Source: Verrucomicrobiota bacterium
GTDB taxonomy: Bacteria > Verrucomicrobiota > Verrucomicrobiia > Limisphaerales > Palsa-1400
Assembly (NCBI GenBank): GCA_049510745.1
Contig: JBEKYR010000008.1
Span: forward strand, 192,001 to 256,000
Length of the DNA stretch: 64,000 bases
Reading direction: 5' to 3'
The notes below the pieces were generated by a model, which did no database searches, was not told where the DNA came from, and was given only the letters and a program-made list of their open reading frames with translations. The position numbers and the translations under genes were made by a program. This document shows positions 27,761-64,000 of the stretch, in pieces; within the stretch, counting starts at the first letter, position 1; each line of letters opens with the position of its first letter.

Positions 27761-27920
27761 TGAAGTTCCGAATGTTCCCAAGGGGGCCGGAGAAGCGCAA
27801 GGTTGAAAGGGTCGAAATATCAGGGTAGGGGCCGCTTTGGTTTGCTTTGCCTGATCTTGGGTTGTGGGCTACTTTGAATTTCCGCTGGCACGTTGACCGC
27901 AAAAGCGGCACGTTGCCAGC

Positions 27921-28052
27921 ATGATTAAACCGAAGAAGAAGCGCAAGGGAGATGCGGCCCAAGTCGCTTAAAGCGTCATGCAGGAGGTTATCCGAATGAG
28001 CAATAAGCCCATTGTCGCCCCGCCCGCCACAAAGCCCAAGAAAAAGCGGTAA
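27921..28052 (+). pseudogene. Small basic ORF with internal TAA
   Basis: MIKPKKKRKGDAAQVA*SVMQEVIRMSNKPIVAPPATKPKKKR*, starting ~40 bp inside the left IR. Confidence 0.4.
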
Positions 28053-28099
28053 TTTTCGGGCTTTCTTCATGGGCGGAATTGGGGCTTTATGCGGTGATT

Positions 28100-28699
28100 A
28101 TGCCGAAACCGCAACCGAAGCGCTCCAAGGTCAAAAAGGACACCCCAACGCGTAGGCTTAAATTTGCTGGTCAAATCAGGGAGTGGGCCAAAAAAGATAT
28201 TGTGACCGCAACATTTTTCGCGCAAAGAGGGAGAATATTCAGCGACATGGAATTGGCATTGGTGTGTTATTACTTCATCTGGGATAAATTTAAAGTCCTG
28301 CAATCCGGTCAAAATCCAATCGAACAAGGAATTTTGGGGGAACTATGGACAAAGGAGGTGTCGGACGCATACTCAAAAAACATTTCGCAACTTTTTGCCC
28401 AAGATCGAAGAAAACTATGCGGGATATTCTTGAATGCAGTGGAAAACCGCGATGCTGGAAAGATTTTAGAGATTGCCAAGGCGGTCAAATTCTTAAAGAC
28501 ATTCAAAGAGAATAGCGACCATTGCCGGGCTGGCATCTTGGGTTTGAAAAGTGTACTGGATAAAAATAACCGAAAAATGCCAATCAGCGAACTGGCGCGG
28601 GCGGTCAAATGGCCTGCAAGTGACGCAAAGCACGGATTTTGGAGACTTCGCAGAATCGCCAAGGAATTGAATTTCCCGCTGGAGCCTCAACACAAATAA
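28100..28699 (+). CDS. Hypothetical basic protein with possible C-terminal HTH
   Basis: 199-aa AT-rich ORF; MPISELARAVKW helix pattern. Confidence 0.6.
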   Translation: MPKPQPKRSKVKKDTPTRRLKFAGQIREWAKKDIVTATFFAQRGRIFSDMELALVCYYFIWDKFKVLQSGQNPIEQGILGELWTKEVSDAYSKNISQLFAQDRRKLCGIFLNAVENRDAGKILEIAKAVKFLKTFKENSDHCRAGILGLKSVLDKNNRKMPISELARAVKWPASDAKHGFWRLRRIAKELNFPLEPQHK

Positions 28700-28996
28700 G
28701 GCCGTGCAAACCGCGATAATGTGTTGAGTGTGTTTCAACTTCATAGGGTAAATTCCCCTCACGGAACTGCAATTCCGCAATAGGCGCATGTAATTTAGAA
28801 ACCGCTTTGTGTCCAATGCCCGCGCCGGGTGTTTTGCAGTTGGATGCGAGGCGGTTTTCGTTTTTGCGATTATGAAATTAAAACGGTCGCGCTTGCGTAG
28901 CCATTAAGGGCGGATACGTGGAGCGCGGACAAATGGGCACGGCCCGCTTGGTGATTCTTTGGCAAGACAACCAAGCGGGCCGCAAACGTAATGAAT

Positions 28997-29092
28997 GGGG
29001 CCAGTCCCCTTTGGCTGGACGCCGTAACGCGGGTTTAGACCGCTAGGGGCATTGTGTAATGCAATGGGGTTCGACTCCCACTGGTTCCACCA
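28997..29092 (+). ncRNA. tRNA-like RNA, 9/3 (allo-tRNA-like) fold, encoded CCA
   Basis: GGGGCCAGT pairs with ACTGGTTCC (9 bp) followed by A-CCA; T-arm GGG-TTCGACT-CCC; long arm CATTGT/GCAATG; hairpin GCGG-GTTTAGA-CCGC. Confidence 0.75.
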
Positions 29093-29248
29093 TTTACGCG
29101 GATACAGAACCACAGTCTGCCGCTGAAAGCAAGACTTTTCTGGCCCATTTCGACTGCGACAGGCCAGATTTGACGATTGTCGCATCAATTGTTTTGCGCT
29201 CGCCAGCCGTGAACCGGAGTTTTATGGCGTGCAAACAGGACAACATAC

Positions 29249-29797
29249 CTAGTCCGCCATCTCGCCGGTAAAAAACTCCACTATTTGTTCTTTTGTTCGC
29301 GGCTTGGTGCCGCGCTTCTGCACTACTTCGTGGTAAACTAAATAGAATCCAGTCCAGACGTCAGATTCATCGCCCTTTTGCTTTCTTATCACCTGGTCAA
29401 AACACGTCTCCCAGTAATATTGAATGTAAATCGAGTAGTCGCAATAAATCCTACTTTTCTGCATTTCATGGTCTTCAAGCGCGGAGCCAAGATCATTAAA
29501 GAAATCAATTATATCCTCGCTTATGTCGGCTGGTTTATCCAGGTTTTCCAAGATTATTTTTGCGGCTTTTTGGCGCTTTGGTTCAAGCCGTTCCCAGCGT
29601 TCCTCGAAGTAATTGGCCCTTTCTTCGGCTTTTTCACCCCACTTGAACCGAGATATGAGAACGCAAAGGATTGCGCTTATGATAAACCATTTGCCTGCAA
29701 TCGCGTGGTCTTGTGATGCGATGGCGGCAAAAAGCGGGGCACCAACTAACACAACCAGCCCCTCCGCTCGAATCCATCTGTGGAGCCAAGGAAACAT
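29249..29797 (-). CDS. Hypothetical protein with two N-terminal TM segments (DUF4760-like C-terminus)
   Basis: Two hydrophobic helices followed by an IIDFFNDLG motif; AT-rich. Confidence 0.6.
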   Translation of the reverse strand: MFPWLHRWIRAEGLVVLVGAPLFAAIASQDHAIAGKWFIISAILCVLISRFKWGEKAEERANYFEERWERLEPKRQKAAKIILENLDKPADISEDIIDFFNDLGSALEDHEMQKSRIYCDYSIYIQYYWETCFDQVIRKQKGDESDVWTGFYLVYHEVVQKRGTKPRTKEQIVEFFTGEMAD

Positions 29798-29920
29798 TTG
29801 GCCAGATTGACCCTAAATCCGATGTTGAAAAGGCATTTTTTGAGCCTGTTTTGCTTTCACATCCCGAATTTATACCACTACTATTCAGAAAATACGTGCT
29901 TCATGTTGAATATCAGAGGT

Positions 29921-29958
29921 TTACAAATCGCGCCGCAGAGCGGCGGCGCGATTTGTAA
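29921..29958. repeat. Perfect 16-bp-arm inverted repeat
   Basis: TTACAAATCGCGCCGC-AGAGCG-GCGGCGCGATTTGTAA. Confidence 0.9.
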
Positions 29959-30093
29959 GATCTCTCAATTTCTCCGTTGACAGGTTCTTGGCTGAAAACG
30001 CGGCGGGCGCGATTACAAGCTTCAAAGTAGCCCACTACCTGGCCTTGACTGGGCTTGACCGGACAAGGAGGAAGGCAGGATGAATTCAGCGGT

Positions 30094-31434
30094 TCAACGG
30101 CGGCGCGCCGTCAACGAGGAGGGTCGGGATTTCTTCCGGGTGCTTTTCGCCGCCGCCGGTTTTGCGCCTGTCCGGGCGTGTTGTTCCATCGCGGCTTCGA
30201 CCCGGGCGCGGTCGGTTTCGACAAAGCACTGGAGTTGTTCGGCGGAGGGCAGCACCGTGAGATAGCGGGAAACGAAGAGGCGGTTGTCCATGCCCGCCGT
30301 GGCGAACTGCACCTTGGTGTGGTCCTTGTCGCTACAGAGGAGGATGCCGACGGGCGGTTGATCGCCCTCCGCCATCATGCGGTCCTTAAAATAGTTGAGG
30401 TAATAATTCATCTGGCCCGCGTCGCCGTGTTGGAAGGGGCGGACTTTCAGATCGAGCAGGACGTGGCAACGGAGGCGCCGTTGATAGAAGACCAAATCCA
30501 CGTAGTCGTGCTCGTTGCCAAGGGTCACCCGGAACTGGCGGGCCTCGAAACAAAAGCCCGTGCCGAGTTCGAGCAGGAATTTTTGCAGGTGGTCGAGCAG
30601 GGCCGTTTCGAGATCGCTCTCGGTGTATTGCGGCAATTGGGCGAGGCCGGTGAATTCGAGGACGTAGGGATCGCGGATCAGGTCTTCGATGGTTTCCTGC
30701 GGCTCTTGAGCGCGGGCGCGTTTGATGACGGCGGCTTTATTTCTGGAAAGACCGGTCCGCTCAAAAAGGAGTGACCCAATCTGGCGTTGAAGCTGGCGCT
30801 TCGACCAGTTGCCCTTGAGACACTCGTTTTCATAGAAGGCGCGCTTTAGCGGGTCGTCGATGCGAATGAGTTCAAGGATGTGCGTCCAGGAGAAATGAAG
30901 GACGGCTTCGGGAGAAAGAGGCGTTATGCCGGAAGATTGGCCAACCCGTGGTTGGCCAATTCCGTAACCGGTGGTGACGGAATGACCAGCCAGACCAGAG
31001 GTTGCCGGCGCGCTCAATTCCGTAAGCGGTGAGGACGGAATTTTGCCGCCAAAAGCGCGCCGGGAAATCCTCACCGGTGGTGAGGATTTTTGACTCCCAC
31101 CGCCTGGCAGAAGGAGACGATTGCCCAATTCCCTCACCAGCGGTGAGGAAATCTTTGAGCCAAGTTGAGGATAAACTCCGTAGAGCAGGCGTGTGCGTTC
31201 CAACATCTGAACGCTTAAGCCACCGATCCCACGTTGTTTCAGGTCAGCGGCAAGCCGTGACAACAATCGGACTCCGTATTTCGCGCGATCCTCGCCATTC
31301 TGCTCGAATTCCACGAGGTATGCCCCAACCAGCCAGTTACGGATGACGAGGGATTGATTGACGACGGCGGCGGCGCGACCGAGCAACTCCCGGCTGGCCG
31401 AATCAATCGCTTTGACAAGTTGATTGTATCTCAT
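30094..31434 (-). CDS. YhcG/DUF1016 family PD-(D/E)XK nuclease with expanded internal linker
   Basis: RNWLVG, RAKYG, SWTH, RDPYVLEF, LELGTGF, DLVFY, DLK, GQMNYY. Confidence 0.92.
   Translation of the reverse strand: MRYNQLVKAIDSASRELLGRAAAVVNQSLVIRNWLVGAYLVEFEQNGEDRAKYGVRLLSRLAADLKQRGIGGLSVQMLERTRLLYGVYPQLGSKISSPLVRELGNRLLLPGGGSQKSSPPVRISRRAFGGKIPSSPLTELSAPATSGLAGHSVTTGYGIGQPRVGQSSGITPLSPEAVLHFSWTHILELIRIDDPLKRAFYENECLKGNWSKRQLQRQIGSLLFERTGLSRNKAAVIKRARAQEPQETIEDLIRDPYVLEFTGLAQLPQYTESDLETALLDHLQKFLLELGTGFCFEARQFRVTLGNEHDYVDLVFYQRRLRCHVLLDLKVRPFQHGDAGQMNYYLNYFKDRMMAEGDQPPVGILLCSDKDHTKVQFATAGMDNRLFVSRYLTVLPSAEQLQCFVETDRARVEAAMEQHARTGAKPAAAKSTRKKSRPSSLTARRR
30936..31152. repeat. Five 25-bp palindromes (10-bp arms, 5-bp spacer) inside the yhcG-like gene
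   Basis: Starts at 30936, 30959, 31017, 31065, 31128; spacers CCGTG, CGGTG, CGGTG, CGGTG, CAGCG. Confidence 0.85.
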
Positions 31435-37361: not shown

Positions 37362-39304
<1,943 letters not shown>

Positions 39305-58300: not shown

Positions 58301-61300
58301 TCGCCCTCACGCCGCCGCCGGCCCCGGTCATCACGTCCCCCGCCGCCGGCCTCATCGTCAAGACGAATCTTCTCTCCGTCAGCGGCTCGGCCGAGGCGGG
58401 CATGAACATTCAGTTGACACGCAACGGCCAGATTGTCGGCGCCACCGTCGCGGATGGCACGGGCTTGTTCACCGTCTCCAATGCCACGCTGGTGGAAGGC
58501 CTCAACACCCTGGTGGCGGTCGCCTTTGACAGCACCGGCACGACCCCTTCGGCGGCCAGGAATGTTATCGTCGAAACCATCCCGCCGGCGGCCTTGGTGA
58601 TGAACACGCCCGTTTATGCTCCCGGAACCGGCCTGAATGTGTCCTGGAATTTTCCGCCCACCGGCAAACTGGCCGTCACCTTCCAGTTGTTCTGGAGTCA
58701 GGCGCCGTTTGGAGAGACCAACGAGGCGACCGGGCACAGCATCGTTCTTACGGGCATGGCGGATACCCTCCAAGGCCTCTCCGATGGGCTTTATTATTTT
58801 GGGGTGGTCGGTTACGATGTCACGGGCGCGGCCAGCCCGCTCTCGGCCTTGGTCTCGACGGTGTATGACGCCACTCCGCCGGCGTTGACCGTTTCTTACA
58901 GCCGCGCGCCGCCCTTGGGGGTCGGGCCGGTCGCCATTTCCCTGACCTCCAGCGAGGCGCTGGCGGGGACGCCCTCTTTGACCCTGCAGCCGTGCGGAAG
59001 CGTCTCGCCGGTTTTGCTGAGTCTGACCAACGTGGCTGTCAATACCTGGCAAACAGCGTTCACCGTGACATCCTCAACACCCTCCGGGCCGGTCGCGGTG
59101 ACGGCGTCCGCGCAGGACTTGGCCGGCAATGTTTTCAACGGCGTTCCCAATGGCCCGGCGCTGGCCATTGACACCGTTGCGCCCGCCGCCAGCATCACCA
59201 CGGTCCCGCCGCCGCCGGTGCAGACCACCAACAATGTCAACGTGGCGGTGAGCCTGGCGCTGACCAAACCAGCCGGGCCGGGAACAATGCCCACCCTGAG
59301 CTTCACAACGCCGACTGGCACGAACATCGTCCTGACGCTGTCCGGCGGCGGCAGCAATTGGAGCGGAACGCTGCCGTTGACGCCGGCGGCAGGCGCCGGT
59401 TTTGGCCAGTTTTCCTTCAGCGCCCAGGACGCCGTGGGCAACGTGGGCAGCAATCTCCTCGCGGGAGGCCAACTTGAGCTTTACAACACCGCTTTGCCGT
59501 CGGCTCCGGCCGCGCCTTCGGGCCTGAGCGCGACCAGCCTGGCGGGCGGCTATGTCTGGCTGGCTTGGAACGCGGTCAGCAACGCGCAGATTTACCGCGT
59601 TTACCGCGAACCCGGGACGAATTTGGTTCCGCCCGCCGTGCTGGATCTTGACCACATCACCAGCAATGGCGTGGCCGATCTGCCGCCCTCGGATGGTTCT
59701 TACCGTTACGGCGTCACCGCCAGCCGTCTTGGCTCGGAAAGCGGGATTTCCAACGTGGTGGTGGCGGTTTCCGTTCGCACGCCGCCTTTGGCGCCGACCA
59801 ACGTGACAGCCAATCTGGCCGCCAGCGGGGTGCAAATTTCCTGGCAGGAGCCTGCGGGCGGGACCACCCCGGACCATTACAACGTCTATCGCAATGGAAC
59901 TTTGATCCAAACCGTCTCCAGCGTTTCTCCGGTGGTGGATTATCCGCCGCTGGGAACCAACAGCTATGTCGTGGCGGCCGTTGATGCCGTGGGCAACCAG
60001 AATCCGAGCGCTCCCGCCGTGCTGTTCCTGCCCGTCGCTCCGGTCAGCAACCTTGCGGCGTTGTCAATTGCCGGACAGGCCCCGGTTCTGACGTGGAACA
60101 CCGGCGGCGGCAGTGTTGGCTGCAATGTTTATCGCAACGGCATCCGGCAGAACGCCGCCCTGATCACCGGGACCAATTACACGGACAATCTGCCGTTGTC
60201 GGATGTGGTGCGGTACGCCGTCACCGCCGTGAACGGCTCCGCGCAGGAAAGTCCGCCGAGAATGGTCACGGTTTATCCGGTCCGTCTGAGTCTCCTGGTG
60301 AACTCGTTGGGACGCGGCGCGGACAACCCGCTGTTGACCGGTTATTTCGACCAGTTCCAGGTGGGAGTTTCCAATCTGGGCAGCAGCAACAGTCTCCCGC
60401 TCCAGCAGGTGCAATTGCTGCGGACGATCACCGGCCTTGAACCGTTGGTGGTCACCCTGGGCGCGCCCACCAACGTGAGCGCGGGGACGCAACTCCAGGA
60501 GCTGATCACCGTTCCAGAATCATCCGTCGTCGCCGCGCAAAGCGTGCAGGTGACCGTGTTCCAACAGACTGACAGCGCGGGCAGCACCGTGGTCTATGAG
60601 AATACGTTTAACCTGACCGACAGCCGGTTGCCGGGCACGGAAATCGCCCTGTCGGTCAATCAACTGCCGCTGGTTGGCGGAGTGACCCCATTCCAGCTTC
60701 AAATTTTCAATCGGGGTTATGCCGACATGGAAGTGATCGTGTCGCGCGCCTTCGGGGCGCAGCCGGGCGATGTTTTCGTCTCCGTCCAAAACAGCTTTGG
60801 CCAGGAAGTCAGCCGCACCGCGTTGTCGGGCCTGGTGTCCGGCGCAACCTACCTTATGGACGGCACGGCGTATGTGACCATCCCGCCGGGCGCATCACAT
60901 ATCCTGACCATCACCAATGTGCTTGTGCCGGCGGCGCTGGGTGGGGCGACCAACGTCACGTTCCTGGGCGTGGCCAGCGAGATTTACAATCAGTTGGAAA
61001 CGACCAACCAACAGGTGTCCGGGCCGTTGAGCGGGAGCATGGTTTCGCCGAGCTTGGCGCAGACGCCTTATTACGGGACGGCCCAGACGGACAAAGCGGA
61101 CTACTCGAATAACGATCCCATCCTTATCAGCGGGCAGGCGCTGGATCGCACTTCGGGTTTGCCCGTGCCGAATGTGCCCCTGAATATCGGATTCGCCGCC
61201 CGCGGTTTCCACTGGTATCAAAGCGTGACGACGGACAGCGACGGGAATTACCAGCTTACATACAATCCATTGGCCGGCTTCGCCGGCACGCTGACCATCT

Positions 61301-63465: not shown

Positions 63466-64000
63466 GATATTTGCCTGACTTCGGGTGTCGTTTCCGGGCG
63501 GGTGTTCTGCTCCTGCTCTTGTTGCCTTGGACCGGCGCGGCCCAGGAGCAACAACAGGGACTCTGCGCCCAGGTCAAGATCATGATTTCGCAGCAAATGA
63601 CCCTGGAACGGATCGGCTTTCAGGCCACCCTGCAAATCACGGACAATGACCCGAACGATCCGATCACTGGGTTTGCCGCCAATCTGACCTTTGAGAATCC
63701 CGCCCTCTCCACCAACGGAACGGTCAACGATTCCTCCAGCCTGTTCTTCGTCCAGCCGCCGACCCTGCAAAACGTGGCCAGCGTCAACGGCAGCGGCGTC
63801 TTCTCGCCGGGGCAGACCGCGACGATCGTCTGGTTCATTATCCCCACGACCAATGCCGGCGGCATGAGTCCCAACGGCGTTGTCTATAATGTCGGGGCCA
63901 AGTTGAGCGGGCAGATTCGCGGGGTGGATATCCCCGCCTCCAGCCTGACGGTCTATCCGGCGCCGATCACCGTCCAACCCGACGCCCAGCTTGCCATCAC
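63462..64000 (+). CDS. Secreted protein (3' truncated), translationally coupled to the giant protein
   Basis: ATGA overlap, GGAGG RBS, signal peptide, then LCAQVKIMISQQMTLERIGF; frame open to the window end and absent from the ORF track. Confidence 0.85.
   Translation, partial: MRYLPDFGCRFRAGVLLLLLLPWTGAAQEQQQGLCAQVKIMISQQMTLERIGFQATLQITDNDPNDPITGFAANLTFENPALSTNGTVNDSSSLFFVQPPTLQNVASVNGSGVFSPGQTATIVWFIIPTTNAGGMSPNGVVYNVGAKLSGQIRGVDIPASSLTVYPAPITVQPDAQLAI

Follow-up and report, generated by a model that had tools for sequence, protein, structure and literature searches.

The question addressed at this locus is how a 2,180 bp block of AT-richer DNA, with inverted repeats at its ends, a tRNA-like RNA and two orphan genes inside and no transposase, came to lie in the genome of a Verrucomicrobiota bacterium (Limisphaerales, Palsa-1400), and what the RNA may do there. 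The block occupies positions 27860-30039 of the stretch analyzed here (the window), which comprises 64,000 nucleotides of contig JBEKYR010000008.1 (positions 192,001 to 256,000, forward strand; assembly GCA_049510745.1). A previous sequence-only reading described it as an IS1-like cassette that was mobilized in trans and carried a defense or addiction module. We found that it derives from a passenger-carrying insertion sequence (IS) of the IS1 type and is now non-autonomous and decaying. Our favored reading overall, to which we assign a probability of roughly 55%, is that the family of this decayed derivative carries a leader-gated RNA that suppresses stop codons by inserting alanine. The features of the element are as follows (numbers with L denote loci, and numbers with C denote contigs of the bacterium's own genome).

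27852-27859, no strand: left copy of the target duplication, TGATCTTG, drifted (8 bp is the duplication length of the family)
27860-27878, plus strand: left terminal inverted repeat, differing from the family consensus at one position
27921-28052, plus strand: small basic open reading frame (ORF) of 43 codons with TAA at codon 17 (27969-27971), recognized by homology to the IS family
28100-28699, plus strand: 199-aa all-helical protein of an unnamed family, in the variable slot (family search, structure model)
28798-28858, plus strand: long hairpin followed by a T-run, terminator-like, common to L024, L032 and L033
28872-28927, plus strand: short upstream ORF (28872-28907, 11 codons) and, overlapping it, the first leader hairpin (28888-28927)
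28940-28982, plus strand: conserved leader hairpin immediately before the tRNA-like gene (covariation, 19 sequences)
28997-29092, plus strand: tRNA-like RNA (fold, identity elements, five-sequence comparison)
29094-29246, minus strand: 3' remnant of an antisense ribbon-helix-helix gene, with homology from about 29225 (Pfam NikA-like, E 9e-6)
29249-29797, minus strand: 182-aa passenger with two N-terminal hydrophobic stretches (convergent ORF)
29921-29958, no strand: perfect 16-bp palindrome upstream of the 182-aa gene
30021-30039, minus strand: right terminal inverted repeat, matching the family consensus exactly
30040-30047, no strand: right copy of the target duplication, TGGCCTTG

The ends belong to a widespread IS1-type family

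Elements of the IS1 family have terminal inverted repeats of about 15-25 bp that start with GGnnnTG, and they generate target duplications of 8-9 bp. The two 19-bp repeats in the window are complementary at 18/19 positions and begin with GGT(A/T)GTG, and the GC content of the element is 48.3%, versus 60.3% in the genome. These properties were correctly described in the sequence-only reading, as were the agreement of the flanking 8-mers at 6/8 positions (TGATCTTG on the left, TGGCCTTG on the right) and the lack of a transposase between the ends. The repeat pair alone is weak evidence, as an 18/19 pair within 6 kb also arose in 3 of 20 shuffled windows; we judged the ends to be real because the same 19-mer recurs elsewhere. 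A second 18/19 inverted pair in the window (59369-59387 and 63777-63795) is GC-rich, apparently lies within coding sequence and was taken as chance.

With up to three mismatches, the 19-mer was found at four further places in the same genome. It was also present in 19 of the 31 genomes of the host's family (0 for a reversed-pattern control), one of which had 29 matches, mostly close to contig ends. A scan of species genomes detected the end in at least 123 stretches, most of them titled Acidobacteria and some Verrucomicrobia, Planctomycetes and others, and 47 stretches with the end were found in viral contigs. The collection contained 54 distinct facing end pairs spanning 32 to 4,051 bp, and their 8-bp flanks were identical in 37 cases, differed at one position in 6, at two in 5 and at more in 6. 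The suggested 8-bp target duplication is therefore a property of the family, with 6/8 positions retained in the window copy. L024 (3,204 bp), L028, L029 and L165 have identical 19-mer ends, perfect 8-bp duplications and a 276-279-aa transposase inside. This transposase scored 24.4 bits (cut-off 24.1) against PF03400 in L029 and 19.3 bits in L024, and plasmid homologues 51-55% identical to it carry an IS1 family annotation. The IS1-type nature of the ends was borne out by their GGT(A/T)GTG start and by the occurrence of the same ends, in relatives, around transposases whose best profile matches are to IS1. These ends are owned by a widespread IS1-type insertion sequence.

The family resembles IS1 insertion sequences that have a single long ORF and passengers (presumably the ISMhu11 group) in its GGTnnTG ends, its 8-bp duplications and its DDE transposase matching PF03400 and NF033558. 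It differs in having a non-coding leader and tRNA-like cargo 5' of the transposase, and the window copy differs in having no transposase. Minimal elements of 32-38 bp, which contain barely more than two overlapping ends, were detected at L086, L102, L117, L132, L137, L142, L149 and L073 and are mostly flanked by perfect 8-bp duplications. One viral contig (L331-L335) has seven exact end matches in about 8 kb. In L024, L028, L029, L101 and L165, 3-5 direct repeats with a spacing of about 21 bp, resembling an operator array, follow immediately after the variable ORF; none were evident in the window copy.

A truncated copy that probably decayed in place

In intact members, the left end is followed by the small basic ORF, the variable ORF, the leader hairpins, the tRNA-like gene, a small gene, the transposase, passengers and the right end. 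The small gene behind the RNA is either an antisense ribbon-helix-helix gene or a short basic peptide. The left end, the small ORF (86% at the DNA level) and the leader/RNA region (76%) of the window were colinear with L024. The ribbon-helix-helix remnant, which was overlooked in the sequence-only reading, lacks an N-terminal GRP segment that was found in five homologues, and therefore the break was placed near 29225-29250, where the 182-aa passenger ends. Very likely, this element once had the intact gene order and then lost its transposase, together with the start of the ribbon-helix-helix gene, through a deletion. The small ORF has TAA at codon 17, where homologues have Tyr (TAC or TAT) or an unrelated sense codon. 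Of the cargo that had been proposed, the 199-aa ORF, the structured RNA and the convergent 182-aa ORF with two hydrophobic segments were all present, whereas the small ORF is broken by this stop. The insertion is probably old and has degenerated where it stands, to judge from its drifted flanks, a mismatched end and the nonsense codon in the small ORF.

The proposal of mobilization in trans was supported only in part. The cassette is non-autonomous, and autonomous partners whose repeat is identical are present in related genomes; however, its interior is a truncated parent element, and neither a second nor an empty site was found. The colinear interior, the truncated family gene, the drifted flanks and end, the absence of an intact transposase, and the lack of an empty or second site are explained by a deletion in place, following insertion, at least as well as by movement in trans. 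The bacterium's own assembly (94% complete) contained no intact transposase and only four remnants: one at C2:214027 ending at residue 207 of 277, a C-terminal part at C2:26266, one interrupted by a stop at C8:135527, and one at C2:22650. An empty site was not detected in the 17 relatives' loci that were read, in which the genes upstream of the AMP-binding gene differ, or in the fragmentary contigs of four runs. The one joint across the element in these runs, X16 (23 letters on the short side), keeps both ends and corresponds to a short element with these ends rather than to an empty site. No second insertion site of the cassette was found, as the copies in L163 and L166 are at the same site and 100% identical.

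Mobile insertion cassettes, as defined in the part of PMC4337579 considered here, have passengers between IS-type inverted repeats and lack their own transposase. The window element shares with them the IS-related inverted repeats around passenger genes and the absence of a transposase, and two further elements of this make occur in the same genome, on C2 and C7. It differs in that its interior is a truncated parent element and that the assembly contains no cognate intact transposase. The element at C2:26127-27202 (L001) has the end pair and flanks agreeing at 7/8 positions. It is an internally deleted family member, in which the first codons of the small ORF are fused to the C-terminal third of the transposase (PF03400, E 1.5e-4 for the transposase part), and it has two small passengers. 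A second transposase-less cassette, at C7:106989-108350 (L002), has a perfect 8-bp duplication, GGCCTTTC, a left end short of one base and one AT-rich passenger gene. In addition, a lone end lies beside AT-rich orphan genes at C18:16742-16760 (L003), with no partner end or matching flank within the range searched. Both the window insertion (30040-30062) and that at C2:26110-26126 are located within a short tandem GTCAAG motif, and AAGGCC is common to three flanks. Together these hint at a target preference, although flanks in other genomes do not share the pattern.

A tRNA-like RNA with five stems

The RNA at 28997-29092 has an acceptor stem of 9 bp, a T stem of 3 bp, a V arm of 5 bp and an encoded CCA. 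Its D stem (4 bp) has a 5-nt loop, and its 4-bp anticodon stem supports a 7-nt loop, GUUUAGA, with G32 and with UUA at positions 29035-29037. G3:U70 and A73 are present. An extra helix of 4 bp is located directly inside the acceptor stem and encloses the D and anticodon arms. The region was more structured than expected, with z scores of -3.8 for 28700-29250 and -3.2 for 28997-29093. We compared five distinct sequences, those of the window, L024, L165, L025 and L313, which were hand-aligned in a script and belong to two transposase subgroups about 50% identical to each other. All 29 pairs of the five-stem fold were unbroken in the five sequences, and the D-loop GG and the T-loop were kept. There were six two-sided changes (one in the acceptor stem, two in the extra helix, one in the D stem and two in the V arm) and four one-sided changes; the anticodon and T stems were invariant and hence uninformative. 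The structured tRNA-like RNA proposed from the sequence alone was thereby confirmed.

ARAGORN at default settings missed this RNA. Rfam detected no family in the window at the gathering score, and with a relaxed threshold it yielded nothing beyond chance hits apart from a T-loop match of 13 nt to tmRNA. A tmRNA remnant was ruled out: D, anticodon and V arms are all present in the RNA, and a separate tmRNA is encoded by the host. Neither the five-stem RNA nor RNAs of the 7/5 type were found in viral contigs, and the leader/RNA region was not found in plasmids.

A covarying leader precedes the RNA

The leader is a long hairpin located 5-30 nt before the RNA, with an A-rich linker and another hairpin further 5'. 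Among 19 sequences, two-sided changes were observed at 10 of the 12 pairs of the hairpin, and its covariation score was unmatched by any shuffle and far above those of slid controls. Within the order, a leader model produced seven hits outside its training set (besides a tandem copy beside a training member), five of which were followed by a tRNA-like gene (L307, L313, L317, L325 and L326). Searching 100 loci with the model gave 2 hits; a further 95 loci gave 1, which was a training member, and the three genomes reached through L041, L061 and L097 gave none. The leader also precedes IS1595-like transposases (L031 and L033/L306; the family label was read from the protein). In these two cases it was followed once by a Leu-like tRNA body with GUC and once by no tRNA. 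At L316/L320 (G028:C7:36249-36379), a tandem pair of leader-model hits precedes a five-stem RNA. A promoter scan of the window copy gave no signal above shuffles. It is possible that the hairpin with its T-run and the 11-codon ORF attenuate expression.

Alanine identity and stop-reading loops in the RNA slot

A strict detector identified tRNA-like genes in 9 of 76 distinct regions upstream of the transposase and in 3 of 300 random host windows. For the closest group, the eight transposases at 70% identity or above, such a gene was present in all eight cases (6 by the detector and 2 by eye). We collected 24 complete slot RNAs, leaving out L307, in which the contig end cuts the RNA, and ARAGORN calls near L289 and L292, which had no clear leader and one of which was on the opposite strand. 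G3:U70 together with A73 occurred in 18 of the 24, on bodies of the 7/5, 8/4 or 9/3 type. The loops of these 18 alanine-identity RNAs had UUA (10 RNAs, with that of L029 taken from ARAGORN), CUA (5), GUA (2) or an irregular sequence (1), so that 15/18 had a loop reading UAA or UAG. Among 76 host tRNA calls, only the five alanine tRNAs clearly have G3:U70 and A73. UACA or UAGA is common to many of the slot-RNA loops. These patterns point to selection of the slot for an alanine acceptor end (G3:U70, A73) combined with a loop that reads stop codons (UUA or CUA), even though the tRNA bodies differ widely.

In L325, L326 and L317, the tRNA-like gene has no transposase within 1.5 kb, and some members (L034, L028 and L033) are visibly degenerate. 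Two irregular tRNA-like genes were observed at L032:5448-5641 (minus strand), downstream of and opposite to an IS1-type transposase and in the same element as a homologue of the 199-aa protein.

The two orphan proteins

The 199-aa family comprises 158 clusters at 50% identity. A structural model of the window protein is all-helical (pLDDT 96.6), with three short C-terminal helices. There was no Pfam, PHROG or fold match of weight for this protein (the C-terminal part was not searched alone), no hit in a PDB sequence search, and nothing above 0.81 in an atlas search. The helix-turn-helix suggested for this ORF is putative. Its homologues elsewhere are in L032, a related IS, and in L330, between an integrase-like gene and a small excisionase-like gene (labels assigned by reading). 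This setting suits a regulator, and the protein may bind DNA in such a role. The 182-aa protein has seven close relatives and DUF4760-like language-model features (0.93), no Pfam match, and a weak match to SLATT_5 (E 0.002, 17.6 of 60 bits); a literature search on DUF4760 brought up a single unrelated entry. Fold searches, which had been proposed for both ORFs, returned only generic helical matches, with best Z scores of 6.6 and 7.0.

In a comparison over 380 loci, no match to the 182-aa family was found other than in copies of the window cassette, and the 199-aa family occurred in only two other places, L032 and L330, where it does not adjoin this RNA. L024, L165, L025 and L313 carry the same RNA without either protein, and the slots of the two proteins hold unrelated genes in each relative. 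The companions of the RNA across its carriers are the leader hairpin, the small antisense gene and the transposase. The idea that the RNA, the 2-TM protein and a regulator form one module is not supported, because neither protein accompanies the RNA in its four other carriers. The two orphan proteins look like incidental passengers.

A proposed mechanism and its alternatives

In intact elements, the RNA would be transcribed behind the leader, matured by host enzymes and charged with alanine by alanyl-tRNA synthetase (AlaRS), an enzyme that does not read the anticodon, and the charged RNA would insert alanine at UAA or UAG. Judging from identity elements and loops, we regard these steps as somewhat more probable than the favored reading as a whole. 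Steady read-through would be costly, because 1,001 of 2,459 host-like genes (41%) end in TAA or TAG; therefore, we propose that the hairpin with its T-run and the short upstream ORF hold the RNA off. Release may be conditional, for example upon infection or stress, and the released RNA would then be a conditional translation poison that favors cells or lineages retaining the element. This gating and retention is the weakest step and is put forward tentatively. It is doubtful, though conceivable, that the IS1-type (and in some cases IS1595-type) lineage combines a gated leader and an exchangeable alanine-accepting, stop-reading tRNA into a trigger-released, RNA-only defense or selfish poison; the same doubt covers the accompanying view of the window cassette as its transposase-free form and of the five-stem fold as an undescribed nested variant. 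Recoding in the host was considered and rejected. In-frame candidates amounted to 3/948 for TAA, 3/834 for TAG and 5/1,701 for TGA, and those printed look like shadow frames; the host does not appear to depend on read-through, because in-frame TAA shows no excess in its genes.

Several observations weigh against the favored reading. Distant transposases mostly have no such RNA, and the detector found none in 67 of the 76 transposase-upstream regions. The leader occurs without a following tRNA in L327, L242 and L033, and none of its three hits outside the order had a tRNA behind it. Alanine identity is missing from six of the 24 slot RNAs, and GUA is the triplet in two that have it. Anticodon stems are mismatched in 7 of the 15 stop-reading RNAs, and irregular loops (G32, often C37) or 4-bp or mismatched stems occur in L029, L290, L286, L232, L230, L288 and L325. 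The slot RNAs were gathered partly by eye and are kin, and their counts are descriptive. For the window RNA, a nearest-neighbor prediction, which takes no account of tertiary contacts or modifications, gave an anticodon-stem probability of 0.0 (0.51-0.99 in the four relatives) and an energy of -35.6 kcal/mol for the five-stem fold versus a minimum of -44.6 kcal/mol; in the predicted ensemble, the D arm pairs with the anticodon arm. The RNA of the window copy is probably impaired. A five-stem-junction UAU species of Mukai et al. showed no translation in E. coli, as far as the compared parts of PMC5389517 describe it. NF033558, the best NCBIfam match of the transposase, was reached with 49-53 of the 100 bits needed. 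Finally, PADLOC (library of 2023) had no match for the three window proteins and a weak one for a single homologue (E 0.006).

An element as described could also carry an RNA that does not decode. In this case, RNase P and 3' nucleases would cut read-through transcripts at a tRNA mimic before the transposase, which begins 50-350 bases downstream, or the RNA would be a decoy that baits anticodon nucleases or other tRNA-binding proteins. We consider this main rival unlikely. In its favor, the RNA is fixed just upstream of the transposase in the same orientation, bodies vary freely (7/5, 8/4, 9/3), many anticodon stems are poor, the canonical tRNA core is altered by the extra helix, related five-stem allo-tRNAs were inactive in translation (in the portion of PMC5389517 considered), and the UACA/UAGA shared by many loops could be a protein site. 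However, a processing signal would need neither G3:U70 with A73 (18/24) nor a triplet matching a stop codon (15/18), and the leader is sometimes found without the tRNA and the tRNA without a nearby transposase (L325, L326, L317). A decaying relic of a captured tRNA, neutral and without a present role in any member, is suggested by the degenerate members L034, L028 and L033 and by the possibly misfolding window copy. Such a relic is very improbable, given that four of six helices show compensatory changes in five sequences from two transposase subgroups about 50% identical, that the leader covaries, and that unrelated tRNA bodies have identity elements in common.

Two further alternatives depend more on the window copy itself. 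A single defense or addiction unit, made up of the RNA with the 199-aa regulator and the 2-TM protein, might move as a cassette: all three components are intact between the ends, in contrast to the broken small ORF and ribbon-helix-helix gene, the 182-aa protein has its weak SLATT_5 match, and the identical cassette is present in two more metagenome contigs. Those two copies, being at the same site and 100% identical, are not independent, and the distribution described above (four RNA carriers without either protein, L032 and L330 homologues away from the RNA, a 182-aa family confined to this cassette, slots filled with unrelated genes, and no PADLOC match for either protein) largely refutes such a unit, for which we see very little chance. 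The suppressor could instead serve the element by reading through in-frame stops of the element's own genes, the TAA in the small ORF being one example, thus gating their expression or making the host dependent on it. The window copy does combine a UUA-loop RNA with an in-frame TAA at a conserved position and a frame open on both sides. However, this TAA is private, since L024, L165 and L029 have UUA RNAs yet sense codons at the site; it is one step from TAC; the transposases of these relatives are uninterrupted, and the three read end in TGA; and host genes have no in-frame TAA excess. A self-serving suppressor is thus highly improbable.

Other features of the window and genome

A YhcG/DUF1016 PD-(D/E)XK gene (30094-31434, minus strand) adjoins the element and has an internal low-complexity stretch with imperfect repeats (30952-31152). 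At 37730-37821, ARAGORN called a 92-nt tRNA-Phe, which may be spurious or irregular, as the genome has ordinary ones of 75-76 nt. Contigs C73-C75 of the same genome are small and contain tRNA arrays of 11, 8 and 4 genes; one gene in this set, C73:2821-2897, was called with a UUA anticodon.

Relation to known systems and significance

RNA-toxin addiction modules are represented by CreTA and by type I toxin-antitoxin loci. The element resembles these in having a small, possibly translation-disturbing RNA behind a structured leader in a selfish element, and it differs in that no antitoxin was identified and there is no constant protein partner; its toxicity is putative.

A closer relation is to the (9/3) allo-tRNAs of Mukai et al. 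(2017), which, in the parts of PMC5389517 and the review PMC7609411 compared here, include UUA-anticodon and G3:U70 species. The same parts of PMC5389517 describe that G3:U70 9/3 allo-tRNAs given a CUA anticodon insert Ala or Ser in E. coli, that missense allo-tRNAs arrest growth, and that allo-tRNAs occur in soil and peat bacteria near transposon-related and toxin-antitoxin genes. The window RNA shares with them a 12-bp acceptor/T branch split 9/3, a long V arm (here 5 bp with two compensatory changes), an alanine identity pair and a UAA-reading anticodon uncoupled from identity, for which published UUA rows exist. It differs in the extra 4-bp helix around the D and anticodon arms and in G32; moreover, the allo-tRNAs have a D arm with a long stem and tetraloop and a long anticodon stem, whereas here a 4-bp D stem carries a 5-nt loop and the anticodon stem has 4 bp. 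Five marker strings of the window RNA retrieved no related row and one unrelated UAU row from the Mukai table. The nested five-stem form, the defined IS1 slot and the conserved leader do not appear in the compared text and tables of Mukai et al.; figures 4A and S5, which lie outside the comparison, could contain loci of this kind or a comparable five-stem form. Literature searches, judged from listings, found no paper on an IS-borne leader with a suppressor tRNA. The element type and the allo-tRNA class are already known, and the interesting part is the IS-borne combination of leader and suppressor-tRNA cargo.

Naturally occurring nonsense and missense allo-tRNAs have lacked both a home and a purpose since they became known in 2017. 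Our analysis assigns them to a fixed position within a mobile IS, preceded by a covarying leader. Alanine identity and stop-reading loops across unrelated bodies point to a function, and the natural variants make this question testable in E. coli. If the RNAs work, transposons spread conditional ambiguity of the genetic code. If true, the nested five-stem fold would also widen what the ribosome accepts as tRNA and would provide new scaffolds for code expansion.

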